From positions 12,609 to 76,608 of the forward strand of contig JBDHWG010000009.1 of NCBI GenBank assembly GCA_039810085.1: a DNA stretch of 64,000 nucleotides, read 5' to 3'. Below the pieces are notes generated by a model that worked only from the letters and a program-made list of their open reading frames with translations, was not told where the DNA came from and made no database searches. Source of the DNA: Anaerolineae bacterium. Lineage in GTDB: Bacteria; Chloroflexota; Anaerolineae; Epilineales; JAHCIE01. This document shows, piece after piece, positions 2,366 through 18,318 of the stretch. Position numbers and translations under genes: made by a program. The number at the start of each line of letters is the position of its first letter. Positions within the stretch are counted from its first letter, which is position 1.

Positions 2366-2445
2366 TCTATAGCGACGAGGGATTTGTTGTACTAGCAAGC
2401 ATATTAAAGGCAAAATAACAGAAAGAGCGATGTCCGAGAGGCAGC

Positions 2446-2940: not shown

Positions 2941-3062
2941 TTATGACAGCGAGTTCACTTCGATGTCCTCGAAAAGAACTCCGATTGACCCCTAGCTGAG
3001 TTCCGTTATAATCTGCCGACGTAACCGGCAAAGAACCCACTTCGATAGACCCGAGGACAAGC

Positions 3063-4343
3063 ATGGCCGAACCAACGAAATATGTCATGATGGACGATGC
3101 CGCTGAAATCCTAGGCTTGTCACCCGTCCGGATCCGAAAGCTGATTAAAGAGGGTGCCATTCGGACAGCCGGATCCAGCCGTGCACCCTTACTCGCCTGG
3201 GATGATGTTTGTCGGATAGCAGGAGCTCAACGTCCTCCTTGGGCACTTCTCACAAATGAGCTTGTTCATGGCTCTGTCTCGCCAGAAGGCTTGTTTCTCG
3301 CGAAACTAGAATCCGCGGATACCAACACTTCATTCGAGACCAACCAGGTCGCCAAAGGTCACTGCATTGACTGGATGAAAAAGATGCCGGCCGGTTCAGT
3401 TCAAACCGTTGTGACCTCTCCTCCATACTGGGGTGTACGCCGCTATAAAGGGGAGCAGGAGGTGCTCTGGTCTGATGGTACACGATGCGCATTTGGAGCA
3501 GAGGATACCCCTGAAGCGTATGTCCGGCATACAATGGATATCCTTAGGCACCTCAAGCGTGTGCTTCGCGATGATGGCGTCATCTGGTGGAATATTGGTG
3601 ACTCGTACCAAACGCGAACACACATTCGAGAGGGGAGTGTCGAACGGCTCCATGCCCTTGATGGACGTCGACAAGATGGGTGGAAGGACTATCCCCACAA
3701 GCGCTATTCAGCAGGGCACGATTACCTCAAGGACAAGGATCTCACCCTCGTGCCCTTCGCGGTCGCGATGGGTGCGCAACATTTAGGCTTCTGGGTGCGC
3801 TCAGTCATCATCTGGAGCAAAGAAAACACACTCCCTGAGCCGGTAAAAGATCGGCCGACCACCTCGCACGAGTATATTTTCATGCTAGTTAAGTCCCGCT
3901 TCTATTACTACGCGCATGACGTTGCTAAGGACCAAACCCGGTCAACGAAATGGGCACCCGAAGATATAGACGGCCAGCTAAAGAATTGGCGCACCGTTTG
4001 GACATTTGCGACTGCTGGGAGTGAAGACCGCAATCATACAGCAGCATTTCCTGAAGAGTTACCCAAGCGATGCATAGTAGTCAGTTCGAGACCGAACGAT
4101 CTCGTCTTTGATCCCTTTGCCGGTTCAGGAACAACGCTCGTAGTGGCAAAACGTCTTGGTCGTCAATACTTCGGCTGTGATCTGAGCGACGAATATGTTG
4201 ACGAGGCGTCTGCTCGACTGGAGCGAGAACGAGGAAGCCTTCAAGCCACACTTGAAGATGCGCTCCCACCAACAGAACTTGAGCGTGTTATAGACCAAGA
4301 GTCTGAAGCTCAGCCAAACAGAGAGCAGCTGCCACTCTTGTAA
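3063..4343 (+). CDS. DNA methyltransferase (beta-class N4-cytosine/N6-adenine) with N-terminal HTH_17/excisionase-like domain
   Basis: 426 aa; N-term DAAEILGLSPVRIRKLIKEGAIRT HTH; motif IV TSPPYWG precedes motif I FDPFAGSGTTLVVA (beta permutation). Confidence 0.85.
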   Translation: MAEPTKYVMMDDAAEILGLSPVRIRKLIKEGAIRTAGSSRAPLLAWDDVCRIAGAQRPPWALLTNELVHGSVSPEGLFLAKLESADTNTSFETNQVAKGHCIDWMKKMPAGSVQTVVTSPPYWGVRRYKGEQEVLWSDGTRCAFGAEDTPEAYVRHTMDILRHLKRVLRDDGVIWWNIGDSYQTRTHIREGSVERLHALDGRRQDGWKDYPHKRYSAGHDYLKDKDLTLVPFAVAMGAQHLGFWVRSVIIWSKENTLPEPVKDRPTTSHEYIFMLVKSRFYYYAHDVAKDQTRSTKWAPEDIDGQLKNWRTVWTFATAGSEDRNHTAAFPEELPKRCIVVSSRPNDLVFDPFAGSGTTLVVAKRLGRQYFGCDLSDEYVDEASARLERERGSLQATLEDALPPTELERVIDQESEAQPNREQLPLL

Positions 4344-4358
4344 GCTGTTGAGGAGAAT

Positions 4359-5678
4359 CTATAAAACTGTTCTAAGCCAGGAGCCCAGTCGAGTAACTTC
4401 TGCCGGTATCTGTGACAGGTCGAAGCCATACCCATATACCATACGGTCATCCGCTGTACGGGCTTCCTGGAGGGTCGCAGTCCCATCCGTGAGGAAGATG
4501 AAGCCTCCAATGGGCGCGTTGTATGCGCTCATGTAAGCCGCAAGCTGGTAATGATCACTGCTATCCGGTTCAAACTTATACTTCACATCAAGAAGTGCCG
4601 CTGTCGTCTGAAGGGTTGTGGACGGACGAATAACGATGTCTGGCTGAAGATTGGCGTTGAATCTGCTTGGCACGGCTCGCTGGTACATAAATGGGCGCCC
4701 GCCCAACCGCACATCATCGCGCCATGAGCGAACGGCGTACATTGGCTCAAGCGCACGCGCAACAATGTTGCGAACGGCTCGCTCAAACAACCGCTCCATC
4801 GGAAGACGCAACGGCGGATACTCAATCTCCGGATGACTCGCTTGGGTTAATGCAAATCGTTCCAGTAGAAGGCGACAGAAGCGCAACACCGGTTCATAGT
4901 ATTCACGGTTCGGCGGAATCCCTCCCCGCTCCTCCAGCAATCGACAGACCGACACCGCCTCGGCTGCGGATGCATACTCGGTGATCGGTGGTAGCGTAAG
5001 CATCTGAGAATACAGTCGTTCGCGGGTTGATGCGGTTAGGGTATCTGCAGAGGCGGCAAGAATAGAGAGCGTTGTTGCAATCACCTTGTTCAGGGAAATG
5101 TCGAGGGTATACCGAACAATACGTTGATCTATCAGGAGTTGACCTCGTTCAATGCTGGTCGTCAGACTCTCGAAAAAATCAATTTCCCCCTCGGGGAACG
5201 CAGAGAGAATCCGTCGGTCCTGATCACCACCCGCCCAACCAAGACGCACAACCTCCTCCAACGTACTCAGCAATTGATCCACCAAGACATCAAGAATGGT
5301 GACGTCGGCTTCAAGGCCATAGTACACCTGCTGATCGGGTATGGTCACGGTTGGTTCATCGGCGAGAAGAAGCAGGCGAACCAATGAGACCGGCCCGCAC
5401 TTGGCATCAACCTGGAGAATAACCCCGTCTCCCAGCAACTCGGTGGTTACGGTGGGTGGACTCTTGGCCGCAATCGTGTGATAGCCGGCAACGGTGGAGA
5501 GGGAAATATCAACAACGTCGAGGGCAAGTGGGTTGATAACTAAGGGCAATTGATCTGTGGGAACTAGATACCGACCAGTCTCGCTAATACGAATCCAGCG
5601 GACGAGCTTACCGCTTCTCGTCACGGCGTTTTCAATGGCAGCAAATTGAGTGTCGGGGGCCATACCAGTATTCGGCAA
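4359..5678 (-). CDS. mcrC: McrC-like 5-methylcytosine-specific restriction system nuclease subunit
   Basis: 439 aa; C-terminal PD-(D/E)xK signature PDIVIRP...LLDVKYKF; 1-bp gap to mcrB stop. Confidence 0.75.
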   Translation of the reverse strand: MPNTGMAPDTQFAAIENAVTRSGKLVRWIRISETGRYLVPTDQLPLVINPLALDVVDISLSTVAGYHTIAAKSPPTVTTELLGDGVILQVDAKCGPVSLVRLLLLADEPTVTIPDQQVYYGLEADVTILDVLVDQLLSTLEEVVRLGWAGGDQDRRILSAFPEGEIDFFESLTTSIERGQLLIDQRIVRYTLDISLNKVIATTLSILAASADTLTASTRERLYSQMLTLPPITEYASAAEAVSVCRLLEERGGIPPNREYYEPVLRFCRLLLERFALTQASHPEIEYPPLRLPMERLFERAVRNIVARALEPMYAVRSWRDDVRLGGRPFMYQRAVPSRFNANLQPDIVIRPSTTLQTTAALLDVKYKFEPDSSDHYQLAAYMSAYNAPIGGFIFLTDGTATLQEARTADDRMVYGYGFDLSQIPAEVTRLGSWLRTVL

Positions 5679-5679
5679 T

Positions 5680-7380
5680 CTATGATCGGAATGTAGCCAT
5701 CAACGGATCAACCTGATCGGTCACAACCGATTCCTGGCGTTGCGTCAAAAACAACTGAAGAGATGGTCGCAAAACGGTCATATACCAGTCCATCAGGTCT
5801 GGTTTATCCTTGATGTCGACGAAATGGGCGTGTCCGATTGGATACTTGGTCAACTCGGTGATCTGCCGCATGACGGCAACGATCTCCATTGCATCGTCCT
5901 CTGTGAATGTACTGTGATCCACAAGAAAATCAAACATCTGCTTGTAGCTAACGGCAAAATCGACAGTGCGAAATCGGGAGAGCAATGCGTAGTCGAGTGG
6001 GTACGTCAAGCGGTCGAGTGTGTTCATGGTTGCAATGAGCAGCAGTTGTTTGGGGATGACAATGTTGCCCCCGCCGTGTGGTAGCGGCAAAGACGTGCCC
6101 CGATAGCCCATCTCGATCAGATGAAACCCCTCTCCAAAGACGGCTGCAACATTGGCCCGATTCAGTTCTTCAATGATCACCACTGATGGTCGATCAGCAT
6201 TACGCTGACAATGCCGAAGAAACAGTCCGGGTTCAGCGGCGAAGTCGAGCGCACCTTGGGTCAGTTTCGGTGTGAGACGTTGGATAAAATCGCCATACCG
6301 CCATTCTTGATGAAACTGGACATGGAGAACGCGCTCCGCCCAGAGAGCGGGATCTGCTGCCTCGGTCGCCTGAAGGTAATCCTCCGCAATATGGACTGCG
6401 CTATACGACTTGCCCGTTCTGGGAGCGCCCGTCAACAGAACGTTCAGTTGACCCTTCTGGATTATTCGTCGCGTAAGTTCAATTGGATCAGTTGCATGCT
6501 CCTGGCTAATCCCCAGAAGCTGCGCGTTAAATTGCATTTGCGCCATGCTACTTGCCTCTCGTAGTCGGATCTCAAAAGGATCGACCTGGCCAAACAAGAT
6601 AAGGTGGTTGTATTCCTCTTCGTCACGATCTTGTTCGAAATCGTCTGTCTGAAGGTTAGGGGCTGATGATCGTTGCGTAAAAAGAAAATACAGTTCCTCG
6701 TCCGAAAGCGAGAGTCGTGACCGCACCAAATGCGCAAGCTGGTCAAAGTTCGGCTGGACCTCGAAAACTTCATTACGGCAACACCAAATGACAAATGGAA
6801 TCCAGGGGATACTACAAAGCCTATGCTCATCAGGCCCAAAGAAAATCGGTGCTGCATCAAGGTATTTAGGTCGCAGTCGAAGGCGCGCACCTTGACCTTG
6901 TTCAGCCTCGATAAGCTCGAAGAGAAACTCACGCGGTCTCAAACCGTATCGTTGCTCCTGCTTATCGAACCAATCGTTCTTGAGTCTGGTCCAGATAACG
7001 CTTCGGTTACTGTCCTCTTTGCGCAGGAGATACCGCCGGTTATCACTGATTGGGAAAAATAGGGGGTAGCCAACAGTTCTTGAAACGCCTTGAGGTGCAG
7101 AGGGGAGGGGCGGTTGATTATTCTGAAGGGTGCCATTTTCAACGCTTAATTGCACGAGTGAACTAAATGAGTCGCTGATCCACGCTAGATATCGAAGTGC
7201 GTCCGTCGGCTTGTTCGCTGACGTGATTTTTACCTCGCTGGCAATATTCCCCTCGATTCTAGCACCGTCATACTTCAATGCTAGAAAGACGATGATATCA
7301 CTATGTGCTGTTCCGAAGAGCGAGCGAGCTGCTCGGGCAATGAGTTTTGGTTTCAAGCGAAACACGGGACCGGACCTCAT
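5680..7380 (-). CDS. mcrB: McrB-like AAA+ GTPase subunit of type IV restriction system, with unassigned approximately 300-aa N-terminal DNA-reading domain
   Basis: 566 aa; LLTGAPRTGKS Walker A, VVIIEELNRANVAAVFGEGFHLIE and LLLIATMNTLDRL motifs characteristic of McrB. Confidence 0.85.
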   Translation of the reverse strand: MRSGPVFRLKPKLIARAARSLFGTAHSDIIVFLALKYDGARIEGNIASEVKITSANKPTDALRYLAWISDSFSSLVQLSVENGTLQNNQPPLPSAPQGVSRTVGYPLFFPISDNRRYLLRKEDSNRSVIWTRLKNDWFDKQEQRYGLRPREFLFELIEAEQGQGARLRLRPKYLDAAPIFFGPDEHRLCSIPWIPFVIWCCRNEVFEVQPNFDQLAHLVRSRLSLSDEELYFLFTQRSSAPNLQTDDFEQDRDEEEYNHLILFGQVDPFEIRLREASSMAQMQFNAQLLGISQEHATDPIELTRRIIQKGQLNVLLTGAPRTGKSYSAVHIAEDYLQATEAADPALWAERVLHVQFHQEWRYGDFIQRLTPKLTQGALDFAAEPGLFLRHCQRNADRPSVVIIEELNRANVAAVFGEGFHLIEMGYRGTSLPLPHGGGNIVIPKQLLLIATMNTLDRLTYPLDYALLSRFRTVDFAVSYKQMFDFLVDHSTFTEDDAMEIVAVMRQITELTKYPIGHAHFVDIKDKPDLMDWYMTVLRPSLQLFLTQRQESVVTDQVDPLMATFRS

Positions 7381-7664
7381 TCTGGGGGAGTGTCGGTGTC
7401 GAGAAAATAATCAATTGGCTTGCCGTACAGGGAAGCAAACGCCTCCAATTCGAGGGCATCCACGCGACGCTCGCCATTCTCGGATTTAGAGATAAACGAC
7501 TGGGGTTTGCCAAGCCGCTCAGCGACCTGTTCTTGCGTCAAGCTGGCGTCAAGTCGCGCTTGGCGAAGGCGCTTGAGAAACTGGCGATAGCGGCTGTCGT
7601 AATCCTGAAGGCTCACACCCTGCCTCAAATAGAGTGACATGAGAGTTGGCAAGTTGGCAGGCAT
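7377..7664 (-). CDS. XRE-family HTH transcriptional regulator, translationally coupled to mcrB (ATGA overlap)
   Basis: 95 aa; LTQEQVAERLGKPQSFISKSENGERRVDALELEAFASLYG is a canonical HTH_3 domain. Confidence 0.75.
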   Translation of the reverse strand: MPANLPTLMSLYLRQGVSLQDYDSRYRQFLKRLRQARLDASLTQEQVAERLGKPQSFISKSENGERRVDALELEAFASLYGKPIDYFLDTDTPPE

Positions 7665-7787
7665 TATGGCTCAGGGCAGAATTTATCCCAAGTTGGGATA
7701 TTGCTGATACAGGCAGTAGGATGACGGGCCTACCGACAGCAGCTGGGGGCAATGCACATTCATACTTGACAACGAGAGATAGAAATG

Positions 7788-7812
7788 GTACAACTCTACC
7801 ATGCAAGTTGTA
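7788..7812. promoter_or_regulatory. Inverted repeat GTACAACT-N9-AGTTGTAC upstream of vapB (putative operator)
   Basis: 8-bp perfect arms read in sequence about 22 nt upstream of the vapB RBS AGAGG. Confidence 0.3.
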
Positions 7813-7833
7813 CATGTTATTAGAGGTACAGAC

Positions 7834-8094
7834 ATGAAGGAATACATTAGCAGCGTCAGCCCGAAGGGGCAGATCACTATCCCCGCAGAGATTAGGGAAT
7901 TGCTAGGGATCAAGCCAAAGGATAAAGTGATCTTTGAAATGGGTGAGGAGGGAGTCAAAATCCGTCCTCTCGCTGCTCGGCTTGAAGCGAGCTATCAAGC
8001 GATACCCGCACTTACACCCGCGAGAACGCTCGAAGAGATGATGGAGATTGCTCATGAGGATCACGCACAGGAGGCTGCCCAAGAGGGCTTATAA
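7834..8094 (+). CDS. vapB: AbrB/MazE/SpoVT-type antitoxin (VapB-like)
   Basis: 86 aa from ATG 7834 (RBS AGAGG 8 nt upstream); GQITIPAEIRELLGIKPKDKVIFE swapped-hairpin motif. Confidence 0.75.
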   Translation: MKEYISSVSPKGQITIPAEIRELLGIKPKDKVIFEMGEEGVKIRPLAARLEASYQAIPALTPARTLEEMMEIAHEDHAQEAAQEGL

Positions 8095-8100
8095 CACATT

Positions 8101-8517
8101 ATGGCGGACCACTTTCTGGACACTAACCTCATTATCCGCTACTTGACCAAGGACAATACCGACCAGGCAGCTCGTGCCTATTATGTTTTCCAGAGGCTGG
8201 AGACCGGCCAATTAACAGTCGCAATGTGCGAAGGCGTGCTCATTGAAGCAGTGCAGGTACTTTCTTCCAAACGGCTCTATAATGTTTCGCGTCAAGACAT
8301 TCGCATGCATCTCTCGACCATCATCCAGCTCCAAGGAGTCAAAATCCCCAACAAGCGCACATACCTTCGCGCACTGGATCTGTACGCTTCAACAACTCTC
8401 GATTTTGTTGATGTGCTGATTGTCGCCCATATGGAGCGCACGAAGGTACGCAGCGTCCTTAGTTTCGACCAGGGCTTTGACAGTATCACGGGAATCAGCA
8501 GACAGGAACCCGAGTAG
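8101..8517 (+). CDS. vapC: PIN-domain toxin VapC
   Basis: 138 aa; FLDTNLIIRYL...VDVLIVAHME...SFD PIN acidic residues; 6-bp gap after vapB. Confidence 0.8.
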   Translation: MADHFLDTNLIIRYLTKDNTDQAARAYYVFQRLETGQLTVAMCEGVLIEAVQVLSSKRLYNVSRQDIRMHLSTIIQLQGVKIPNKRTYLRALDLYASTTLDFVDVLIVAHMERTKVRSVLSFDQGFDSITGISRQEPE

Positions 8518-8711
8518 TTGCGGTAAAGACGCGAAGGGATCGATTTTTTGGGACTCTGCTTCATCGTATGAAAGAGCAATGCCAATGTTGCTTGTTACAT
8601 AGTGTCAACATAGGCTGCGGTCACTCTCCCCATCGTTCAGCTGCGAGATAGTAGTGATCTCCACTTTGACCGAGGCTAATCAGTCCGGTATGAAAGGATG
8701 TTCTACAAAGA

Positions 8712-9977
8712 ATGGCCGCTCGCCTCTGGAAAGACGATAAACGAGCTGCGGTCCAGAAGGATATTTCCTTCCTACTCTCTGCCTACAATGGAACAGGTTG
8801 GAATGTCACCGTCGAGAACCGACTGGCAATGACTGAGTTAGGATGCTCCATTGACGGCACAAAACTCGAAAGAAATGTGGTGATGCAAGTCCTCCAGCAG
8901 ATGATAGCTGAACAAAAAACGAGTATTGACGACTTTGAGATTGTTCTAGAACAAGTAGTTCACGAACATGAACATCGCCGGCGAGCACAGGTCGGTAAGT
9001 GGACGTTCTTCATCCCTATTGAACTTGATGTAGCAGCAGACATTCCCCTTCCCACTACTCTACGTGTTTTTGGCAGGGATTTTGTGTTCCAGACACAAGC
9101 CGCGGTACGAGAACAAATGGATGCTGAAGCACTAGGGGAAATGCTACTGCGGTGGAAGTTCTATAACTCGTGGGAAGATATCCACCTGCCAGCCTGGTTC
9201 ATCTCTATTTCGACGTACGAGGCCGAATGGAATGCTGCCTGGAAGGACATCGAGCCAGCGTATGATGTATTCCGAGGTCTGATCGAGTTCACGCTCTGTT
9301 TTGGACCAACAGGATGGTCTTTCCCCCAACGAGAAGAGCCGCGTAGAAAAATACCGCATCCGTTATGGATGATTGCCAGCAAAGGTCGGCTTGCACTGGA
9401 GCCTATTCTGTTTGAGGCTGACGAATACCCTCTTAAAGAACGGTTTACTCTGACCCCAGATTGGCTGAACGCAATCTTGGAAAATGGCAAAGCTCTGCGC
9501 GAGCTTCCCGCAAAAAACTCAACCTTATCAGTTCTAGCGGACGCTCTCCGTCTATACGCGATAGCTATGGATGCACGTTCCAACTATGCCTGTTTCTTAG
9601 GATTATGGCAGATGGTAGAGGCAATCACGCGTTCAGAGACGACGAGAGGTAAGTCTGATGAGGTCGTCTCACGCCTAAGCTGGCATCGAGAGCGTATGAA
9701 ACTACCCACCTCCGGTTATGCAGCAATCCTAAAGCGACTGGCGGACAAGCGCAACAATCTTGTCCACAGAGGTATTCATGACATTACCCACGACGACGTA
9801 ATGTTCATGAAGTTCTTCGGCGACATAGTGCTTGTTTGGCTTCTGGGAGTTTACACATCCTTGCCAACCAAAACACATCTGGATGAGTTCTATAGATTGC
9901 GCTCTCAAGGAAAATACAGCGTTCGGGCAGCAAAGGAGACCGCTCAGTATCTCGAAGATTTCACCCAGGCTGAATAG
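8712..9977 (+). CDS. Hypothetical 421-aa protein with C-terminal HEPN-like Rx4HG motif (KRNNLVHRG)
   Basis: Rx4H motif embedded in predicted helical C-terminal approximately 120 aa; no other recognisable family; N-terminal 300 aa unassigned. Confidence 0.5.
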   Translation: MAARLWKDDKRAAVQKDISFLLSAYNGTGWNVTVENRLAMTELGCSIDGTKLERNVVMQVLQQMIAEQKTSIDDFEIVLEQVVHEHEHRRRAQVGKWTFFIPIELDVAADIPLPTTLRVFGRDFVFQTQAAVREQMDAEALGEMLLRWKFYNSWEDIHLPAWFISISTYEAEWNAAWKDIEPAYDVFRGLIEFTLCFGPTGWSFPQREEPRRKIPHPLWMIASKGRLALEPILFEADEYPLKERFTLTPDWLNAILENGKALRELPAKNSTLSVLADALRLYAIAMDARSNYACFLGLWQMVEAITRSETTRGKSDEVVSRLSWHRERMKLPTSGYAAILKRLADKRNNLVHRGIHDITHDDVMFMKFFGDIVLVWLLGVYTSLPTKTHLDEFYRLRSQGKYSVRAAKETAQYLEDFTQAE

Positions 9978-10032
9978 ACCCCCTCGGATGAAAGGAAACG
10001 ATTACCCTTGACCGGTTGCACAAGGTACAGCC

Positions 10033-11082
10033 TTACTGCGGCGTGAACGAGGTCCTCGCAGTATATAACGTACCGTTATATGTGACCTGCACGCCTATTG
10101 AAACTGTATAGCCAAGTGAAGCCCGCCCTATGTTGCGTGAGCAGCTTGCAAGCCCGTCGCTGCCCGTCACCCCATCGCATGATGAGGTCGTGGTCTTGTA
10201 GTTCCATACGGTGTGCATCGGCAGGCTTTCCACGCCGCGGCCGTTGTCGATCAGGCGCCCGTAGACCGTCTCTGTCGAATTCTGTGAGGGTGAAGCGTTC
10301 GAAACACTGGCACAGAGTTGGATGCTCCCTTGCTGTGTGCAAAGAAGATTCTGTCCTGGCGGTTGCGGCACCGCTGTTGGCTCCGGTGAGTTGGTTGATG
10401 TTGGTCGTGGGGTGCTGCTGGGGGTTTCGCTTGGAGATGGCGGCGGAAGGGGTGTCTCGGTTGGGGTCGGCGTGTTGGTCGGCAACATGATTGGCGAGAA
10501 TGCAGCACGTTGGATATAGGGAAGATATAACGGATAGGCGGTTGGGCTGATGGTGGCCGTTGGGGTAATCACTGGCGCGTCTGACCACTGGTAGAGAGGA
10601 TGCAACTCAGCCCATCCACCGTGCTCCAAGTCGAGCACATAGCGCCCTTGCATTACGACGTGCTGACCAATAGATGGGAACGGTCCGCTCATGGGGTGTG
10701 GGTCAGCAGCACAAACGGGGATCGCCGGCGCATAAGTTGGACTAATGACACAGACCGGCTCGACAACCAGGTCACCATGTTGGTTCGCATTGGCTGATGT
10801 AAGGTAATGCTGATAGGGAGGATCAAGCGTCACTCTGATGTGAAGGTCGCCGTCGTCCTCCTCAATAACGTTGGCAACCATCCCGCTCATTGTCAGACAT
10901 TGGTCGAGAACTTGGAGCCGGTCGGGATGATAGACGTAATTGTCCTGGTCGTTCGAGGTGCAGTCGGTTCTAGGAGCCGCCGTGAGCGGGAGTGTGGAGA
11001 GCGCAAGCCCATAGATGGCTAGACCGATTAGTCCAAGAAGGAGAAGACGAAGCATAATTTGGCGCATTGGAAGATCTCTCAT
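10033..11082 (-). CDS. Secreted/membrane-anchored protein with N-terminal signal/TM segment and Pro/Thr-rich linker
   Basis: 349 aa; N-term LRLLLLGLIGLAIYGLALSTLPLTAAP hydrophobic; TPTPTETPLPPPSPSETPSSTPRPTSTNSPEPT linker; Cys-containing flanking domains. Confidence 0.6.
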   Translation of the reverse strand: MRDLPMRQIMLRLLLLGLIGLAIYGLALSTLPLTAAPRTDCTSNDQDNYVYHPDRLQVLDQCLTMSGMVANVIEEDDGDLHIRVTLDPPYQHYLTSANANQHGDLVVEPVCVISPTYAPAIPVCAADPHPMSGPFPSIGQHVVMQGRYVLDLEHGGWAELHPLYQWSDAPVITPTATISPTAYPLYLPYIQRAAFSPIMLPTNTPTPTETPLPPPSPSETPSSTPRPTSTNSPEPTAVPQPPGQNLLCTQQGSIQLCASVSNASPSQNSTETVYGRLIDNGRGVESLPMHTVWNYKTTTSSCDGVTGSDGLASCSRNIGRASLGYTVSIGVQVTYNGTLYTARTSFTPQ

Positions 11083-11130
11083 GACTTACGTTCTGGGGAG
11101 TATAAATAAGTCTCACCCTGGAGTGAGGAA

Positions 11131-12588
11131 ATGGACGCATCCTTTCAGCAAATCAAAACCAATTTCCGTACGCTGCTCGTCGCCGCAGTAGACGAGGGTC
11201 TTGAACATGTTGCGCAGGTAATGAGTGACAGCAGATGGATCGGAACCTACTTCCAATGGCCGGTGATGTCGAAGTGGGAAAGCGGTCTTCCGAGTTTTAG
11301 ACTAAGTCAATTTGAAGGCCCGAAAGATTACAGCATGTTATTCACCGGCCCTGATCCAATAATCGATGCTGATACACTCAAATCATTCCAAGCGCTTGTG
11401 TCATACGTTAAGCAAGAGCCATTTTTGCAGGACAGGCTACTCCCAGTGACAGTGGGTCAGGACAGGCAGGGCGTTATCGAGGATGAGCGTCTTGTCCGGA
11501 TATTCGTGTACCAAATCCTCGAAGCGCTCATTGACCGATATATTCATACACACGCAAGAACCACCTTTGACATGACGGCGTTTGAGGTTGTTTACGAACC
11601 GTATGCCCGATATTTGTTCGAGGAGCAACTCTTAGCAGATATATATGTGCCAATCCTTTTTCTGAAATTTGCTGATGATACCATCACGATAGACGAAAAC
11701 ACAGCGATTGAGCGAATGAGCGATGCATTTCAGCTAGCACGCGCTCCTCTCAAAGCGTATGGGCCAGGTGTCCATGAAGCAGTTATGGGGGCAGCAACCC
11801 ACGCTCTAGTGCTTCGAAATTGGCCGGTCCGCAACGGGAACACGTGGGAGTTCTTACAGCGCCTTACAGAAGTGAGTGTATACCCGCTGGATGACATAGA
11901 CAACTTCTTCGCGGCTGTGAGAATTGTCACGGGCTTCGAAACGGGTTACGCACAACTGCTTGTGAACCCTAAGGGGTGGGCGGCTCACTATAAAGCTGAC
12001 CTCCCTCCGATTGAGGGAACGTCAAGACGAGCCTACCCTAATCGGTTCGAGAATTTCTACTGGCTAAGAAAAGAGGTGCCTGAGATAAACAAAGCAGGTG
12101 CTCAAGAAATAGGTCGTGTGTTCCTGAAGTTACTCCAAATTAAGGGAAATTCCGTGCAGATTGCCGCGAGACGGTTGAATCTTTGCTATCTCCGTGAGCA
12201 TGAAGAGGACTATATTCTTGACGCTACTATTGCGCTTGAAGCTCTTTTCTCTGACGATGAGCGAACAGAGATGACCCACAAACTAGCCTTGAGAGTTGCA
12301 GCACTAGCAACCATCTCCGACGTGTTTCGGCGCCCCCCAAAGCAAGTGTTTCGTGAGGTGAAGCAAATTTACGGGTATAGATCAGCCGTCGTCCATGGTA
12401 GCAAAAAGACTGACCGAGCACGAGACATTACGGTACATCATACGCAACGAGTACCCGCAGGTACTCTGGCCGTAGAATATCTCCGTCATGCATTGCTTAT
12501 CTTGATTGACCATCCCCAATATCGAGAGCCATCGCGCATTGATGAGGATTTGTTGCTTGGCAAAGGCGTCGATGAGCAATCTACATAA
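11131..12588 (+). CDS. Hypothetical 485-aa protein with C-terminal HEPN-like Rx4HG motif (YRSAVVHGS)
   Basis: Motif and surrounding helical pattern parallel the 8712-9977 protein; N-terminal region unassigned. Confidence 0.5.
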   Translation: MDASFQQIKTNFRTLLVAAVDEGLEHVAQVMSDSRWIGTYFQWPVMSKWESGLPSFRLSQFEGPKDYSMLFTGPDPIIDADTLKSFQALVSYVKQEPFLQDRLLPVTVGQDRQGVIEDERLVRIFVYQILEALIDRYIHTHARTTFDMTAFEVVYEPYARYLFEEQLLADIYVPILFLKFADDTITIDENTAIERMSDAFQLARAPLKAYGPGVHEAVMGAATHALVLRNWPVRNGNTWEFLQRLTEVSVYPLDDIDNFFAAVRIVTGFETGYAQLLVNPKGWAAHYKADLPPIEGTSRRAYPNRFENFYWLRKEVPEINKAGAQEIGRVFLKLLQIKGNSVQIAARRLNLCYLREHEEDYILDATIALEALFSDDERTEMTHKLALRVAALATISDVFRRPPKQVFREVKQIYGYRSAVVHGSKKTDRARDITVHHTQRVPAGTLAVEYLRHALLILIDHPQYREPSRIDEDLLLGKGVDEQST

Positions 12589-12781
12589 CGATGGTTGTTG
12601 CGTCAATCCTGATAGTCTTAATTTCGAAAAAAGGGACCAATATGAGGGTAGAGCAGAGAAGGCGACGCGCGTTGCGCAACATGGACGGCAACACCGTCGC
12701 GTTTCCACCTCTCTTTTCCATCCTCTGGTCCCTAGAATCATTCTCTGATCACCTCCTCTTGCGGTTGTGGTCGTTCATCGG

Positions 12782-13336
12782 TTATATCAGCCCCAACTCC
12801 GACAGCCACGACTTGCAGCCGTGTTCACAGATGCCGTCTGGTTCCACGGTGCAGCCATCGGTGGCCTCGCACTCGCCGTCCATCATCCACTCCATCAAAG
12901 TTTCCAAGTCTGGGACTTGCCGACGTTCATCGTTGAACGTGCTCACCCACAAGTGGGTGTTGGGATCCCAAGACATGCGGAAGCGTGGCTTCGGTGGATA
13001 TTCAAGAAAGCGCCTGAGCACGATCTCAATGTCCGCCATAAGTGGCGCCTGAACGATATGCACATACCGCCGGCTGGATTGCTCGATGTACATCTGACAA
13101 GCCACGGCTCGCGTGCCGTCCTCAGTCACCTGTAGGAGCTCGTACCCGCCAAAGGTCTCCTCAACGTCGCCAAGCCATGCGGGGTCCGCTGGCTGCGGTC
13201 TATCAACAACAAGCAACCCAACGAGCCAATCACGACGGCCGGGCTGCATCGCTAGGCCATAGCCGGAGAAGATATCCGGGACGTCGGGATGCCAAAGCCC
13301 GTAAACGGGGTCATTGGTCGAGGTCGCAAGCGTCAT
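12782..13336 (-). CDS. Hypothetical protein (184 aa, Cys-rich C-terminus)
   Basis: Last gene of a tightly coupled 4-gene minus-strand operon (ATGA overlap with upstream gene). Confidence 0.45.
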   Translation of the reverse strand: MTLATSTNDPVYGLWHPDVPDIFSGYGLAMQPGRRDWLVGLLVVDRPQPADPAWLGDVEETFGGYELLQVTEDGTRAVACQMYIEQSSRRYVHIVQAPLMADIEIVLRRFLEYPPKPRFRMSWDPNTHLWVSTFNDERRQVPDLETLMEWMMDGECEATDGCTVEPDGICEHGCKSWLSELGLI

Positions 13337-13545
13337 CGTTCCTCCTGAAGTGTGATGTTGATCGCCGCGGCGATCTCGGGTGGGAGATCATCGAGTGATT
13401 GCGTGTATTCCAGACCGATATAGTCGTCTCCCCAATTCGCTTCGTCGAGGTCGACCACGGCAAACATGACGGGGTTATCGCCGCAGAACACCGCAGCCAC
13501 GATGCCGTTCTCGACCTCAATCACGATCTGCGGCACATCATTCAT
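13333..13545 (-). CDS. Hypothetical small acidic protein (about 70 aa, start MNDVPQ)
   Basis: Start ATG overlaps stop of upstream gene (GATGAATGA); acidic composition. Confidence 0.4.
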   Translation of the reverse strand: MNDVPQIVIEVENGIVAAVFCGDNPVMFAVVDLDEANWGDDYIGLEYTQSLDDLPPEIAAAINITLQEER

Positions 13546-13768
13546 CAAGTTCCTCCTTGAGTATTGGCAGTCGAATACGGAACGTGTAGGACACAACGAG
13601 GTCGGCGTCCAGCTCCTCATCTGGTTGGACCACACCACGTTGTAGGTCGAATAGCAGGTTCTCAATCGCCTCCTCTCGGTCTTCTGCTTCGTTGTTGACC
13701 ACGACAACGGTCGCATCGGACCGCTTCAACTCATCCAGCATCTGTAGCGCCGTTATGGTTCGGATCAT
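13538..13768 (-). CDS. Hypothetical small acidic protein (about 76 aa, start MIRTITAL)
   Basis: 1-nt gap to upstream gene; internal start chosen over long ORF extension. Confidence 0.4.
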   Translation of the reverse strand: MIRTITALQMLDELKRSDATVVVVNNEAEDREEAIENLLFDLQRGVVQPDEELDADLVVSYTFRIRLPILKEELDE

Positions 13769-13769
13769 C

Positions 13770-14126
13770 TCAGTAGTCCTCCGGGAGCAAAATGGTTGTG
13801 ACTGAGCGATCCGCCTCGGTGATGACGTAGATCTTCGTCCCCGTTCTGAGGTGATAGGCACTCAAGATCCGAAAGCCCCGTTTGACGGACAATTCGTTCT
13901 CCGCCTTGTCCTCGTCATCGAGGTCTCCCCAATCACCACCAATATGGCGGCCGAGAAACTCCGCAGGGTGTTGCCCTGCCTCCTCTAGCGCCGCTAAGGC
14001 GCCAGGGGTAGCCACAATCTGGCCGAGGTCAAAGAGCTGTCTTGCCATAGATAGGTCTCCTTTGGGCAGAATGCCCGGTAGGTAATCTACTACCCCCGAA
14101 ATGGAGTAGCGCCCCGAGAACCTCAC
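13770..14126 (-). CDS. Conserved hypothetical protein (118 aa) of a type recurrently seen on plasmids/ICEs
   Basis: Motifs LGRHIGGDWGDLDDEDKAENE and KIYVITEADRSVTTILLPEDY; family not assigned with certainty. Confidence 0.45.
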   Translation of the reverse strand: MRFSGRYSISGVVDYLPGILPKGDLSMARQLFDLGQIVATPGALAALEEAGQHPAEFLGRHIGGDWGDLDDEDKAENELSVKRGFRILSAYHLRTGTKIYVITEADRSVTTILLPEDY

Positions 14127-14290
14127 GAAGAGATACCCAGAGCGCTACACCAACTGGGAAAGAAGCTATTCAGGTTCACCGCAAGGTTTCAAGGTGCAGA
14201 AATCAATGTGTGTCAGAAACGCAACAATCAGAGAGCCATCTCCCTGGTGTTACAGTCTCAAACACTCTCCAGTATATCCTGTTTCAGAAC

Positions 14291-14875
14291 TCAAAATCCC
14301 AGGCCACGCTCTTTCAGACTTGTGAAACCGCTTCGGCCAACAACAATGTGGTCGAGCAACTCCACTTCAAGGATCCGCCCGGCTTCAACTAGGGTCTTGG
14401 TCACCCGAACGTCATCTCTGCTGGGCGTCACATCGCCCGATGGGTGATTATGAACCATGATAATGGCGTGGGCGTTGTCGAGAATGGCCGGCCGAAACAC
14501 CTCAGCGGGGCGAACGGGGCTGCTATTGAGGGTGCCCTGGTACACCATCGGACAGGAGATGATCCGGTTCTTGGTGTCGAGTGTAATGACGCGGACCTGT
14601 TCTTGGTCAAGATCCTCCATCTCAACCCGAACAAATTCATAGGCATCACGGGGACTGGTGATCTGAAGTGCATCCTCCCGAGGTCGCCCGGTCTTTGCCT
14701 CATAAAGGCGTGAGGCTTCGGCGATAAACCAGCGTAGGAGGTGGACAAACTCGGCTTCATCGGGCCGCAAGAAACTCATTTGGGCTTCATGGACTCGTCG
14801 GACTCGTCGTTCTTGGGGCAGCGGCATAGTCGAGCCAGTATAGCATATGGGGTGTAGGACTGGTGTTGATATCAC
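14291..14875 (-). CDS. radC: RadC-like JAB/MPN domain protein
   Basis: 194 aa; JAMM motif HNHPSGDVTPSRDD and C-terminal LKERGLGF; start uncertain (GTG 14875 or ATG 14827). Confidence 0.8.
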   Translation of the reverse strand: MISTPVLHPICYTGSTMPLPQERRVRRVHEAQMSFLRPDEAEFVHLLRWFIAEASRLYEAKTGRPREDALQITSPRDAYEFVRVEMEDLDQEQVRVITLDTKNRIISCPMVYQGTLNSSPVRPAEVFRPAILDNAHAIIMVHNHPSGDVTPSRDDVRVTKTLVEAGRILEVELLDHIVVGRSGFTSLKERGLGF

Positions 14876-15068
14876 GAGTTAGTGCTCGGGACCTCCCCGA
14901 TGGGCGGGCCTCCACCTGACAAACGGGCAAGGCGTATCCGCGTGAGAGACGACCTTACAATCCGTTCTCGGGTGGAAGTATAGGAACTCATCTCTCATCC
15001 GGCGATTGGCGTCGTTGCTTGTGTGTTGACTACCGTCAGTCTTGGTGGAATCATACGGATGAGGTTGT

Positions 15069-15353
15069 GTGGCGAGGTCACGAGAAAAAGGGGGGGCTGT
15101 GGGGTTCGTCGCTGTGTTCGCGATCCTGCTGGTTGGTGGCTTCATTGCCAGCAGATTACACGGTCGTATCGTGGTCAGCAATCTAGCGATCTCCATCGTT
15201 TCGATTGCTCTGCTGCTGCTCGTCTACCTGATGCTCGCAAAGCTCATACTACCGGCGGTCTGGCCAAGCGCTGATGTCATCTCGACGCTGTTATTGACGA
15301 TTGTGATTGTAGGGCTCCTCTCGCGTGGTATCTTTCGGTGGCCGGGTATGTAG
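15069..15353 (+). CDS. Possible small membrane protein (94 aa, about 3 hydrophobic helices)
   Basis: Only hydrophobicity pattern; no family. Confidence 0.2.
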   Translation: MARSREKGGAVGFVAVFAILLVGGFIASRLHGRIVVSNLAISIVSIALLLLVYLMLAKLILPAVWPSADVISTLLLTIVIVGLLSRGIFRWPGM

Positions 15354-15554
15354 AGGGCGTGATTGAGGTACGTTTCTCGTGTAGCGGGTCGCCGTGTACA
15401 AGATGGTTCTGTTGCGCCAGAGCTGCCGCACTCCGCTCTCTCACTCCTCGTTAGTCGCCTATCGGCTCCCTCCTCGTCGTTCGCTCGCTCCGTTTGACCT
15501 TGGTAGGGTTGATGCAATGTATGACTAACCACGTACAGACGGGATATTGACCAT

Positions 15555-16535
15555 GTGACTTATAATGTCTGCATGACTACAGAACATGGTCGCCAAGTCT
15601 ATGACGAACAATTTAAGGACGAAACAGTACGGGCTCTCGGTGAAAGTGGAATGACACTTACTGCATTTGCTCGGGTTCGAGGGATACCACGAACAACCTT
15701 GTGGGATTGGAAACACGGAGGCATTCAGGGAGAAGAAGCTGTAGGAAGTCCAAGAAGCCTCCTATCCACTGAAGATGGGGAACGACTGCCAACTCGTCCT
15801 AAATTAGGTATATTTATTGACGACGAACCACTCAAATTTAAAAAATGGGAGAGAGTTTTTACACTGGAAGGCTTTGAAAGTCTCACTCCAGATCAAATGC
15901 TCCATGATGGCATGTCGGATACTCAAACTATTCAAGCTTTAGATCAATGGATGGATTTACTAATTCATCTTCCTGACCGAGCTCTCAAAGATGTTGAGAT
16001 TGTGGTCATCGATCAGTTCAATTTCTCTCAGTATCTACAGATGAAAGCAAAACACTTAATAAATCGACTTCGTAGCGTTAACACAATGGCATGGGTTTTG
16101 GAAACTAGTGGAGTGGTTGAGCCACATGTATATGAGGGAACAAATGCTGTTCTTGACGCGCTTGATACCACTCAGGCAATTGACCTAGTAGAAGATGCTC
16201 CATTAACTTTATCAGCTCGTATTCAAGCATTTAAAATATTTACATTGACCCCATTCCTTGAAGCACAAAAGGCCGATACAGTAAATGATGATGAAAAATA
16301 TAGTCCTTCGGAAGGATTGAACAAATTAATAAGTCACAGGAAATTCAATGAAGCACTGGCTGCTATAGGGATATCTGAGAGAGAGTTTTTTAGCATTTTA
16401 GCACTTAAGCGAGATGATGACCTGCGCCCTATTGTGCATGATTTAGGGAATCTCATGGGGCATATGATACTTGATCATGGTGATGAATATTACACAATGT
16501 CGGTAGACAAGCTGCGACGGCTTCTTCGAAGGTAA
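15555..16535 (+). CDS. Hypothetical protein with N-terminal IS3-OrfA-like HTH (HTH_Tnp_1-like) fused to an unassigned AT-rich-encoded domain
   Basis: 326 aa; YDEQFKDETVRALGESGMTLTAFARVRGIPRTTLWDWK resembles IS3/IS911 OrfA HTH; remainder of gene markedly AT-rich relative to surroundings. Confidence 0.5.
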   Translation: MTYNVCMTTEHGRQVYDEQFKDETVRALGESGMTLTAFARVRGIPRTTLWDWKHGGIQGEEAVGSPRSLLSTEDGERLPTRPKLGIFIDDEPLKFKKWERVFTLEGFESLTPDQMLHDGMSDTQTIQALDQWMDLLIHLPDRALKDVEIVVIDQFNFSQYLQMKAKHLINRLRSVNTMAWVLETSGVVEPHVYEGTNAVLDALDTTQAIDLVEDAPLTLSARIQAFKIFTLTPFLEAQKADTVNDDEKYSPSEGLNKLISHRKFNEALAAIGISEREFFSILALKRDDDLRPIVHDLGNLMGHMILDHGDEYYTMSVDKLRRLLRR

Positions 16536-16588
16536 TTCTTCTGACCAGCGCAATTCTTCTGGACGGCTCGGCAGGTCGTCATTCTGCT

Positions 16589-16987
16589 TTACCGTCGTGC
16601 CCATTGTTCCAGTGTATCTATGACACGTTTGATAGCCGAAACGCACCTTTGTGCATCGCTTACCGACACGTCACGCTCTGCGTTATGAATAATGTTGTTC
16701 CTCTTCTTGATGGCCTCAGCAACGACTTCAATATCGGTCTCATTTATACCTGCTAGTCCTTTGATCGTGCCAAGGCCAATGTTCACAAACGCGCTTAGCC
16801 CCATGTGTTCAATGAGTTTATCGAGGTGGTCCTGATTGAGCGAGGAAGCACCTGGAAGCCGGGTGATGGCCGTCGGAGCAACTTGTCGTGCAGTTGCCTC
16901 CAATGCTATGACAGCCTCTATAATCGCTATACGTCCGTTGCCTTCCTCTAGGTGGCTAATACTATTCGCTATAAGAACCTCACGCAC
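16589..16987 (-). CDS. Small HEPN-motif protein (KKRNNIIHN, Rx4H)
   Basis: 132 aa, all-helical; Rx4H motif near C-terminus as in HepT/DUF86-like HEPN toxins. Confidence 0.5.
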   Translation of the reverse strand: MREVLIANSISHLEEGNGRIAIIEAVIALEATARQVAPTAITRLPGASSLNQDHLDKLIEHMGLSAFVNIGLGTIKGLAGINETDIEVVAEAIKKRNNIIHNAERDVSVSDAQRCVSAIKRVIDTLEQWARR

Positions 16988-17101
16988 GGGAGGCTTCTTG
17001 TTACTGTCAACAAGTTGTTGAAGCTCCTGCCAGTTCGTGCTACCTAGTGGAGTCGATAACCTGGTGCCTACTTTTGCCCCTGCTCGGGAACCGATCTCGT
17101 G

Positions 17102-17644
17102 CTATTCGTGCTCGCTGTAGTAAGTCAAGCCAACATCGCCTATCCTTCTCATCGGAGGTTCAAAAACCAATGGACGCCATTTGCCATCTTCATCTAGCCA
17201 GAGTGAATGACCACAACTGTTAAATAGTTCGACGTATGGGCTTACTGGATCAACCGGGAGCGTCTCAAGCCAGTATTGTTTCAGGACGTTTCGAACGTAA
17301 CCTGCGAAGCGGTTGTAGGTTGTCGAGACAATCACCCAGACCAGCCGATAAAACTCCTTTAGCTCGTCAGTTATCTCGCCATCTCGAAGTGCTTGTATTA
17401 CTCTGGCATTTGGTGTCGGAAGATCTGTTTCGATAACGAGATCGTGCCAAAAATAGGCGGTTTGATCGGTCGGATCGTCGGTGTAGAGGATATTGCCTGA
17501 AGGCGCTCGGACAGAGAGCCAAACGGAGTATATTCCATTCTCGATGGTGAACTGCAATCGATTAGTTTCTACGAGTGGATCAGAAGGTGAGATCCACAAG
17601 GACTCCCACAGCATGAGGGATATCTTCAACTGCATGGTTGTCAC
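17102..17644 (-). CDS. Hypothetical protein (180 aa), upstream partner of small HEPN gene
   Basis: No recognisable motif (no GSx9-13DxD nucleotidyltransferase signature). Confidence 0.45.
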   Translation of the reverse strand: MTTMQLKISLMLWESLWISPSDPLVETNRLQFTIENGIYSVWLSVRAPSGNILYTDDPTDQTAYFWHDLVIETDLPTPNARVIQALRDGEITDELKEFYRLVWVIVSTTYNRFAGYVRNVLKQYWLETLPVDPVSPYVELFNSCGHSLWLDEDGKWRPLVFEPPMRRIGDVGLTYYSEHE

Positions 17645-17707
17645 CTGGCTTTAGTGAACGGAGAGCTCAAGCCGTAATTATAGCCTCGCCTCACGAATTG
17701 TCGAAGG

Positions 17708-18001
17708 TTAGGTGGTCTGATGCTGCCTCTTGAGTTCGTCTAGGCGCTCCAAAATCCACATACGAGCCAATGTGGTTGGCCCAATCCCTTTCTTTTTCGC
17801 CAGAGTGCGGAGTTCCTCCAATGTATCTGGGTCAAGCCGAACGGTCACACCGCCAGAGAGATTCTTGGCAAACCTAACATCTACGGGCTTCCATTGATGC
17901 CAGTAGTCAGTAAAGCTATGCGTATCCCAAAACGCTGCCTCTTCCTCCCTAGTTTTGAAGTCTGGGATTGGCAGTGATGTCTTCTTTGATGTATCGGTCA
18001 T
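17708..18001 (-). CDS. brnA: BrnA antitoxin (CopG/RHH-like)
   Basis: 97 aa; DPDTLEELRTLAKKKGIGPTTLARMWILERL typical of BrnA. Confidence 0.75.
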   Translation of the reverse strand: MTDTSKKTSLPIPDFKTREEEAAFWDTHSFTDYWHQWKPVDVRFAKNLSGGVTVRLDPDTLEELRTLAKKKGIGPTTLARMWILERLDELKRQHQTT

Positions 18002-18285: not shown

Positions 18286-18287
18286 AC

Positions 18288-18318
18288 AACGAACGCATCA
18301 TAACATAATGCGTTCGTT
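18288..18318. promoter_or_regulatory. Inverted repeat AACGAACGCAT-N9-ATGCGTTCGTT immediately upstream of brnT start (putative operator)
   Basis: 11-bp perfect arms read in sequence, 3 nt from brnT ATG. Confidence 0.3.

Follow-up and report, generated by a model that had tools for sequence, protein, structure and literature searches.

ApeA (Gao_Ape) is a single-protein HEPN abortive-infection tRNase that is activated by deoxydinucleotides; it forms a doughnut-shaped decamer or dodecamer, has a deoxydinucleotide pocket and cleaves the tRNA anticodon (10.64898/2026.01.26.701840). DARNA is a single-protein HEPN tRNase activated by SSB-bound ssDNA (10.64898/2026.02.22.705581). PrrC and RloC, latent HEPN-type RNases located in or beside type I restriction–modification (R-M) operons, carry an N-terminal ABC-type ATPase, and the lactococcal-type Abi proteins (AbiV, 9bj5; the C-terminal HEPN domain of AbiA, 8oz7; AbiD/F Abi_2; AbiJ; AbiU2) carry other N-terminal domains. 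HEPN-MNT toxins (HepT/MntA; 5yep, 7ae2, 8xdj) and the archaeal/bacterial HEPN proteins 2hsb, 1wwp and 4nqf are about 120–150 aa long and have an MNT nucleotidyltransferase next to them as neutralising partner. Not all HEPN domains are catalytic, some binding RNA or ligands instead.

Two larger proteins with HEPN-like motifs, A and B, are encoded in the 64,000-nucleotide stretch of Anaerolineae DNA analysed here (the window). The features of the locus are as follows.

7801–8094, forward strand: AbrB/MazE-type antitoxin of a VapBC-type pair (PF04014, E 7e-12)
8101–8517, forward strand: PIN toxin of the VapBC-type pair (PF01850, E 8e-11)
8712–9977, forward strand: gene A, ORF of 421 aa with the motif KRNNLVHRG (R347...H352)
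8712–9503, forward strand: A residues 1–264, putative sensor/regulatory region, with a four-helix N-terminal segment (8–92) and an alpha/beta domain (95–262)
9504–9974, forward strand: A residues 265–421, predicted HEPN domain with core helices 271–286, 291–305, 336–353 and 360–380
9750–9767, forward strand: A catalytic-type motif R347-N-N-L-V-H352 (Rx4H), conserved family-wide
10033–11082, reverse strand: gene C, ORF of 349 aa with a hydrophobic N-terminal signal/anchor, several Cys and a PT-rich linker
11131–12588, forward strand: gene B, ORF of 485 aa with the motif YRSAVVHGS (R417...H422)
11131–12138, forward strand: B residues 1–336, putative sensor/ligand-binding region, with a long N-terminal helix, a helical segment and an alpha/beta domain
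12139–12564, forward strand: B residues 337–478, predicted HEPN domain with core helices 340–354, 358–373, 403–422 and 443–460
12379–12396, forward strand: B catalytic-type motif R417-S-A-V-V-H422 (Rx4H), conserved family-wide

The ORF calls reproduced A and B with both motifs, as well as the secreted-type, Cys- and PT-linker-containing C on the opposite strand, as given in a preliminary description of the locus; vapBC, also placed beside the genes there, was recovered by its PF04014 and PF01850 matches directly upstream of gene A (7801–8517, forward strand). The A and B genes are 1.1 kb apart in the window, and the starts of C and B are divergent, with 48 bp between the start codons. A and B are located in a low-GC defence/mobile island of a high-GC genome, the GC content of the island being 51% vs. 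65% for the remaining window. The island contains McrBC, an N6/N4 DNA methylase, VapBC, RadC and a mini-HEPN, and the defence-type setting suggested earlier was borne out by the first three of these. Promoter and terminator scans gave nothing beyond shuffled expectation.

The Rx4H motif occurs twice in A and four times in B, compared with 0.7 and 1.0 occurrences per protein expected from shuffles, and alone is not above chance. The motifs R347/H352 and R417/H422 stand out because they are invariant family-wide: R347 was found in 146 and H352 in all of the 147 sequences of the A family, and R417 and H422 each in 119/119 sequences of the B family. An invariant Glu is present in HEPN helix 2 of both families; in the A family, E303 and W299 of this helix are each conserved in 147/147 sequences, while the B family is also invariant at R348, R355, D360, D364, E370, K384 and R388. 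In the AF2 models (pLDDT 87.6 for A; pLDDT 90.7 and pTM 0.90 for B), the C-terminal domains of both proteins are predicted to form the HEPN four-helix up-down bundle, with the catalytic-type motifs closing core helix 3 (336–353 in A, 403–422 in B). The modelled B domain has an additional helix (381–392) and a beta-hairpin insertion (432–442) past the catalytic helix. Conservation and models together predict a C-terminal HEPN domain for both A and B, in which the catalytic-type Rx4H motif is invariant. The preliminary description had taken the motifs as HEPN signatures ending the two proteins and had proposed AlphaFold models as a check. The signature is supported by its invariance and by the predicted HEPN fold, with R and H closing core helix 3 in the models, but not by the motif itself, and both motifs actually lie about 65–70 residues before the C-termini.

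A, B and C gave nothing above threshold against Pfam, NCBIfam, PADLOC (v2.0.0) and PHROGs, and the same was true of family members (sets of 18, 40 and 69) in direct family-model searches. PDB sequence searches with the single A and B proteins and with their profiles returned no relevant match, and C had no family or PDB match. Sub-threshold family matches were to HEPN models only, namely PF18735, PF18739, PADLOC DUF3644, RTasHEPN and AbiD. PF18735 (HEPN_RiboL-PSP) scored 12.7 bits on A (E 0.12), under its gathering threshold of 28.4 bits, and matched 9/18 A-family members weakly (best E 0.0045). Membership in the HEPN families named earlier is thus not upheld, with PF18735 and PF18739 below cut-offs and the PADLOC ApeA model giving no match. 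The N-terminal regions (about 265–335 aa) had been described as unlike anything recognised, and they indeed had no Pfam, NCBIfam, PADLOC, PHROGs or PDB sequence match; that of B contains many invariant aromatic and Gly/Pro residues, e.g., T271-G-Y-x-Q275, W283 and W311. Foldseek of full-length B against the PDB returned nothing at E≤0.001. Its vinculin/alpha-catenin matches, with a probability of ≤0.12, were too weak to use, although ApeA is reported to have an N-terminal domain of catenin-like type.

Homologues of A, about 400–430 aa and full-length, numbered 20 in a word-index search, and an exhaustive HMM search yielded 1064 cluster representatives at E≤1e-3. The A family comprises about 1,000 clusters at 50% identity, mainly environmental, and bears no family name. 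One A homologue lies within a type I R-M operon (order HsdM-HsdS-[A]-x-HsdR), another adjoins a Lit-type peptidase U49, and further ones are near TIR genes, resolvases and integrases; a Pfam scan of 150 neighbours showed that most are outside R-M operons. The family was absent from the phage and IMG/VR collections searched.

For B, at least 408 homologues were found, and the family forms more than 400 clusters at 90% identity from many phyla, its hosts including Citrobacter, Salmonella, Klebsiella, Hafnia, Vibrio and Shewanella. Homologues were located in 48 genome loci spread over many phyla. In Hafnia, a B homologue is flanked by gpV and gpS of a P2-like prophage, and in E. coli the orthologous position of P2 is occupied by Ec2ApeA, an experimentally validated defence gene; both V-S cargos have a GC content of 33–35% vs. 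54–56% for the flanks. Other B homologues are in integrative conjugative elements, three IMG/VR contigs contained B homologues, and the plasmid collection gave a single B-family match. The GenBank phage collection gave no match, and blastn did not find the B family in complete E. coli genomes. The P2 hotspot literature, searched by keyword, had no mention of the V-S cargo site under the terms tried. The B homologues in Hafnia and Citrobacter are each adjoined by a gene of about 430 aa; these two genes are related neither to one another nor to A. The claim that the genes are undescribed was too strong for B, as RefSeq names some of its homologues 'HEPN domain-containing protein'; the literature, searched by accession and keyword, yielded nothing on either family and no functional test of the B family.

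A and B are probably two unrelated, independently mobile single-gene latent HEPN RNases that are triggered by infection. In each, the predicted HEPN four-helix domain forms the C-terminal part and is preceded by an N-terminal region peculiar to the family, of about 265 aa in A and about 335 aa in B. The mechanism is drawn by analogy with ApeA, DARNA, PrrC/RloC and Csm6. The HEPN domains would dimerise, so that two Rx4H motifs form one metal-independent RNase site, and this site would be silent as long as the N-terminal region detects no sign of phage infection. Once activated, it may cut tRNA or further RNAs of the cell or the phage, upon which translation would stop and the infection would be aborted. 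The abortive-infection role of single genes put forward in the preliminary description is plausible from the contexts of the homologues. However, the genes beside A and B homologues include many ordinary housekeeping genes, and the association with defence islands therefore rests on examples rather than on background statistics.

Among the described systems close to the two proteins, ApeA is likewise a single gene whose product has its HEPN domain with Rx4H at the C-terminal side, behind a large N-terminal part without catalytic role. It resembles them locally in the motif of the catalytic helix and its surroundings, and is a low-GC mobile-element cargo, the feature being found here as a lack of conserved neighbours and as the P2 V-S slot that a B homologue shares with Ec2ApeA. 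As in B, an insertion separates HEPN helices 3 and 4 of ApeA. ApeA differs in its length (583–601 aa vs. 421 aa for A and 485 aa for B) and in its N-terminal and middle regions, which have no detectable relation to A and B, the profile similarity being limited to 42–65 columns. In DARNA the order is reversed, the HEPN domain being N-terminal and the sensor a C-terminal helical repeat, whereas A and B have alpha/beta middle domains. One A-family member lies between hsdS and hsdR, similar to PrrC/RloC; A and B had no P-loop domain match, however, and thus no ATPase fusion of the PrrC/RloC type, and the A homologues are for the most part found outside such operons. The N-terminal domains of the lactococcal-type Abi proteins are unlike those of A and B, for which the Abi models of Pfam and PADLOC gave no significant match. 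From the minimal HEPN toxins, A and B differ in having 265–335 extra N-terminal residues and no conserved neighbour; neither a toxin of about 130 aa nor an adjacent conserved MNT was found, A being 421 and B 485 aa.

A coincidental motif match, with A and B not being HEPN proteins at all, would fit the 0.7–1.0 chance occurrences of Rx4H per protein and the curated thresholds of Pfam, NCBIfam and PADLOC that were never reached; given the family-wide invariance and the predicted fold, it is very improbable. We regard as equally remote that A, C and B, either alone or together with vapBC, are one multi-gene defence module, in which an envelope or secreted protein would act jointly with two RNase effectors that differ in their sensors. 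The three genes are adjacent in the window, C and B start divergently only 48 bp apart, metagenomic contigs from this organism repeat the A-C-B order, and one A-family locus (L053) has a secreted PT-tailed protein after the A homologue. The metagenomic contigs are, however, 100% identical and therefore represent the same locus rather than independent evidence, and the secreted protein of L053 is not homologous to C. When all window island proteins were compared by tblastn with 117 loci, B or C was found in 0/55 A-family loci and A or C in 0/57 B-family loci; vapBC was not found beside A or B homologues elsewhere. In Pfam scans no neighbour family exceeded 3/150 for A homologues or 3/135 for B homologues, and all-against-all clustering of the ORFs of the 48 B loci revealed no conserved partner, by which a conserved-partner hypothesis was rejected. 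The single defence module suggested before is therefore largely contradicted by the lack of co-occurrence in the 55 A and 57 B loci and of any conserved neighbour, the bracketing of C by A and B is confined to this locus, and neither C nor vapBC is more than an unrelated neighbour of the two HEPN genes. Nor was the C-terminal region that A and B were said to share seen at sequence level: BLASTP detected no similarity, this region included, and profile–profile comparison (hhalign) gave a probability of 0.2%, and A–B homology was rejected on these two comparisons. A joint MAFFT alignment does place E, R and H of A and B together, which is not evidence of homology.

It is doubtful that B, and perhaps A, are divergent ApeA proteins, i.e., rings of HEPN dimers that are activated by 5′-phosphorylated deoxydinucleotides and cleave the tRNA anticodon loop. 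One B-family member carries the JGI label 'Apea-like HEPN', and PF18739 (HEPN_Apea) did not match B but weakly matched 5/40 family members (best E 0.051); the model also misses Ec1ApeA (WP_000706972.1) and Ec2ApeA (PDB 9HXI) at E<0.01, and therefore its negative result for B says little. The PADLOC ApeA model (PDLC02157), which detected the controls Ec1ApeA (1385 bits) and Ec2ApeA (E 1.3e-12), gave no match at E≤1 to A, B, P0123, P0093, P0074, P0003 and P0007, and 0/69 family members matched at E≤0.01. In hhalign comparisons with an ApeA profile built from 27 sequences, B aligned with a probability of 31.5% (E 5e-4) over 42 columns covering the catalytic helix only, IYxYRSAIVHGS of B falling on IYRTRNxIVHSG of ApeA, and A with 4.9% over 65 columns, HEPN helices 1–2 of each being matched. 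The B insertion between helices 3 and 4 and the common P2 V-S slot also favour this kinship; A and B profiles searched against PDB sequences did not match the ApeA chains. Somewhat less doubtful, but still unlikely, is that A and/or B are not defence effectors but housekeeping or regulatory RNA-binding or processing proteins, or addiction toxins that stabilise the island. Against a non-defence role are the patchy, horizontal distribution across phyla without synteny, the atypical GC content, the homologues in prophage cargo slots, integrative conjugative elements and R-M operons, the lack of an antitoxin-like conserved neighbour, and the strict conservation of the catalytic-type R and H.

As infection-triggered RNases, A and B would add two sizeable families to the single-protein HEPN abortive-infection RNases. 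We tentatively suggest, as a possibility rather than an expectation, that they found two new single-gene anti-phage systems, in which unseen sensor folds respond to cues unlike those of ApeA, DARNA and PrrC and switch on an HEPN tRNase or mRNase, and that B-family genes and ApeA can replace each other functionally in the P2 V-S slot, itself perhaps an unrecognised defence hotspot of P2-like phages. The slot common to Ec2ApeA and a B homologue points to a cargo site of prophages, the N-terminal regions without known relatives are candidates for new phage-sensing modes, and the enterobacterial B homologues are directly testable in E. coli. If A and B do not defend, they are merely two more hypothetical HEPN proteins of a mobile island.

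In the models, the middle domains of A and B have a similar predicted order of elements (beta-beta-beta-alpha-alpha-beta-alpha-beta-beta-alpha), which is only an idea at this stage.

The window falls into two GC zones, about 20 kb at about 51% GC, in which genes A, B, and C lie, and a remainder at 65%. The step between the two zones is sharp (positions 1–20000 at 51% vs. 20001–64000 at 65%), the low-GC island extends past the window start, and no tRNA gene was found at the boundary. The ORFs of A and B have the coordinates and lengths that the preliminary description had assigned to them, and C, encoding a secreted or anchored protein, lies between them on the opposite strand as described there.

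Genes of the low-GC island
Within the island: AAA_22 ATPase gene
Upstream of A: DUF2321 gene
3063–4343, upstream of A: N6/N4 DNA methylase
4359–5678, upstream of A: McrC
5680–7380, minus strand, upstream of A: AAA_5 McrB-like gene, 566 aa
Upstream of A: XRE-type HTH gene
7801–8517, upstream of A: AbrB/MazE antitoxin and PIN toxin pair (VapBC)
8712–9977, plus strand: A, ORF of 421 aa
10033–11082, minus strand: C, ORF of 349 aa with an N-terminal hydrophobic signal/anchor, several Cys residues, and a PT-rich linker
11131–12588, plus strand: B, ORF of 485 aa
14291–14875, minus strand, downstream of B: RadC, at one end of a minus-strand operon
16589–16987, minus strand, downstream of B: mini-HEPN ORF of 132 aa with KKRNNIIHNAE
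Downstream of B: AbiEi-like HTH gene

With McrBC, a methylase, toxin-antitoxin genes, RadC, the mini-HEPN, and an AbiEi-like gene as neighbors, the setting of A, B, and C is therefore a defense and mobile island.

The catalytic-type Rx4H motif was counted in A and B against shuffled proteins. By chance 0.7 and 1.0 motifs are expected in A and B, respectively, vs. 2 and 4 observed, so that the presence of Rx4H is on its own no more than chance. R347-x4-H352 of A and R417-x4-H422 of B are set apart from chance motifs because they are conserved family-wide. In detail, R347 was found in 146 and H352 in all of 147 A-family sequences, W299 and E303 of an upstream helix likewise in all 147, and both R417 and H422 were invariant among 119 B-family sequences, likewise R348, R355, D360, D364, E370, K384, and R388. 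The most conserved part of both families is the C-terminal 150 residues.

AlphaFold2 modeling from the family alignments gave confident models of A (pLDDT 87.6) and B (pLDDT 90.7, pTM 0.90). In both, the third core helix (336–353 in A, 403–422 in B) ends with Rx4H, the same place at which the HEPN catalytic residues sit in the ApeA structure (10.64898/2026.01.26.701840). The likenesses of B were AF0298 (7.8), Csm6 (7.5), TTHA0636, 4nqf, HepT 5yep (7.0), YutE, AbiA, and AbiV. Sequence methods gave hints that were all sub-threshold and all to HEPN models, namely PF18735 in 9 of 18 A-family members, PF18739 in 5 of 40 B-family members, and lone weak PADLOC matches to DUF3644, RTasHEPN, and AbiD. 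The C-terminal HEPN domain proposed earlier for both proteins is thus borne out by the modeled fold, the motif at the end of helix 3, and these matches, and A and B are each very probably carriers of a catalytic-type HEPN domain.

The preliminary description had further proposed that the two putative HEPN RNases, which flank C and lie next to vapBC, are a candidate for an undescribed defense module. In the HEPN region A and B showed no BLASTP similarity and a profile–profile probability of 0.2%; judged by their sequences, they are unrelated to each other. Among 57 loci with a B homolog, drawn from genomes, prophages, and metagenomes, and 55 with an A homolog, none carried A and B together, and neither C nor, apart from a generic HTH, any further gene of the island had a homolog there. 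The A–C–B contigs in sequencing runs were identical and come from the same organism. Clustering of neighboring ORFs yielded no partner gene, nor did a Pfam scan of 150 A-neighbors and 135 B-neighbors, in which the commonest family occurred three times among 111–116 families. Since similarity, co-occurrence, and partner genes are all lacking, A and B are stand-alone genes that became neighbors through co-location in the island, and C is an unrelated secreted protein; the module, never found together in these loci and having no recurring partner, is not upheld, and A and B are almost certainly independent of each other and of C. On a Phototrophicaceae contig, an A homolog is followed by a convergent gene for a secreted PT-tailed protein (L053:9341–10675, minus strand; 444 aa, faint SH3_3), which is not homologous to C of the window and whose position is probably a coincidence.

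Membership of A and B in the ApeA family, single-gene HEPN tRNases activated by deoxydinucleotides, was evaluated with full-length Ec1ApeA and Ec2ApeA taken from E. coli genomes and an ApeA profile built of 27 sequences. The PADLOC ApeA model detected both controls (Ec1ApeA at 1385 bits, Ec2ApeA at E 1e-12) and matched no A- or B-family protein scanned. By hhalign, B aligned with ApeA over the catalytic helix only (IYxYRSAIVHGS vs. IYRTRNxIVHSG, 42 columns, 31.5% probability), and A over HEPN helices 1–2 only (65 columns, 4.9% probability). Therefore, A and B lie outside the ApeA family by every test used. PF18739 (HEPN_Apea) at E<0.01 misses the genuine Ec2ApeA and Ec1ApeA themselves (control loci L061:2605–4356 and L062:2651–4456), so an absent PF18739 match cannot exclude ApeA-like proteins. 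B is like ApeA in architecture, a large N-terminal part followed by a HEPN domain whose helix 3 precedes an insertion, and also in single-gene status and genomic niche. Both A and B are unlike the HEPN–MNT toxins, small proteins that act with an MNT partner, and unlike PrrC and RloC with their ABC ATPase; they also differ from DARNA, a HEPN tRNase triggered by ssDNA with phage SSB, whose HEPN domain is at the N-terminus (10.64898/2026.02.22.705581).

The A family gave 20 matches at first in a word-index search, and an exhaustive profile search recovered 1064 cluster representatives at E<=1e-3, of which 246 reached E<=1e-30. Almost all have about 400–430 aa and match over the full length. All members looked up were unnamed or "hypothetical protein," mainly from soil and sediment metagenomes. 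On one contig (ERZ1426628), hsdS and hsdR of a type I R-M operon are separated by the A-family gene (P0020) and an unassigned 193-aa gene, in the order HsdM-HsdS-[A]-193 aa-HsdR-YgjP-TIR, the last two being YgjP-like and CAP12/PCTIR TIR genes. PrrC-type latent RNases classically lie at such a place within type I R-M operons, and the layout is similar to that of PrrC. Another A homolog adjoins a Lit-type peptidase U49, and the element that carries it also has a serine recombinase. Further ones have TIR genes, Uma2, resolvase, integrase, and IS21 in their vicinity, and the neighbors also include Fic, AAA_13, and a TdeIII R-M pair.

The B family is large, with at least 408 clusters in a word-index search, and ranges over Chloroflexota, Acidobacteriota, Planctomycetota, Bacteroidota, Firmicutes, Spirochaetes, and Alpha-, Beta-, and Gammaproteobacteria, including Citrobacter, Salmonella, Klebsiella, Hafnia, Vibrio, and Shewanella; homologs of 485 aa occur in Citrobacter freundii and Salmonella. 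Many members are named "HEPN domain-containing protein" in RefSeq and one "Apea-like HEPN" by JGI, so the HEPN nature of B is already known to annotation pipelines. The Citrobacter and Shewanella homologs are in integrative conjugative elements (ICEs), adjoining TraC, TraG, TrwC, and integrase genes; three IMG/VR contigs carry a B homolog, and neighbors include Schlafen/AlbA_2, KAP NTPase, HNH, C5 methylase, integrase, and IS110. Many neighbors of A and B homologs are housekeeping genes, and the contexts, as individual examples, are suggestive of defense and mobile elements.

In Hafnia alvei, the B homolog WP_281726597.1 is opposite-strand cargo of a P2-like prophage. It occupies the slot that separates baseplate gene V from tail gene S (L055:10001–13007), beside an unrelated 437-aa TM/coiled-coil gene. 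The same slot of a P2-like prophage in E. coli JNQH497 (NZ_CP091925.1) holds Ec2ApeA, labeled just "hypothetical protein" in RefSeq, which is an experimentally validated defense gene with a solved structure (9HXI). Between the two prophages, the flanking V, W, S, and R proteins share 43–58% identity, and the cargos have 33–35% GC vs. 54–56% in the flanks. The P2-hotspot papers searched yielded no passage on the V–S slot. This shared slot may be a defense cargo site and is one lead; the most useful lead is the B-family genes of enterobacterial prophages and ICEs, which are easy to test.

A and B are two uncharacterized families of stand-alone HEPN proteins with N-terminal domains of no recognized family, and belong to a kind already well known from defense islands, in which a HEPN effector is joined to a variable sensor. 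The analysis shows the modeled fold, the motif, the gene autonomy, and the genomic contexts, and from these we infer how they might dimerize and act, and with what trigger, target, and phenotype. Each would be a self-contained sensor-effector, whose HEPN domains would dimerize so that two Rx4H motifs form a composite metal-independent RNase site, an arrangement well documented in the superfamily (Anantharaman et al., 2013, PMC3710099). The family-specific N-terminal region would hold this site off until an infection cue is detected; in B, this region is rich in invariant aromatic, Gly, and Pro residues, which suggest a putative binding pocket. RNA cleavage would then arrest translation and abort the infection. 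That A and B are infection-triggered stand-alone HEPN RNases with an N-terminal sensor is the reading we favor, with moderate confidence.

Other genes of the island were also inspected. In the McrB-like protein, AAA_5 is confined to residues 313–470, and the N-terminal region of about 300 aa, which has no Pfam match, may be an unusual target-recognition domain. The mini-HEPN has a sub-threshold PF18735 match (E 3.8e-4, 20.8 bits vs. a 28.4 cut-off) and may form a two-gene HEPN toxin system with the 180-aa gene just upstream (17102–17644, minus strand; no Pfam match). Directly 3′ of B, public gene calls conflict over two overlapping ORFs, 12591–13052 (plus strand, 153 aa) and 12782–13336 (minus strand, 184 aa). 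The latter shares 4 nt with the next minus-strand ORF, consistent with an operon from RadC, and because it fits that operon the 153-aa ORF is probably spurious.
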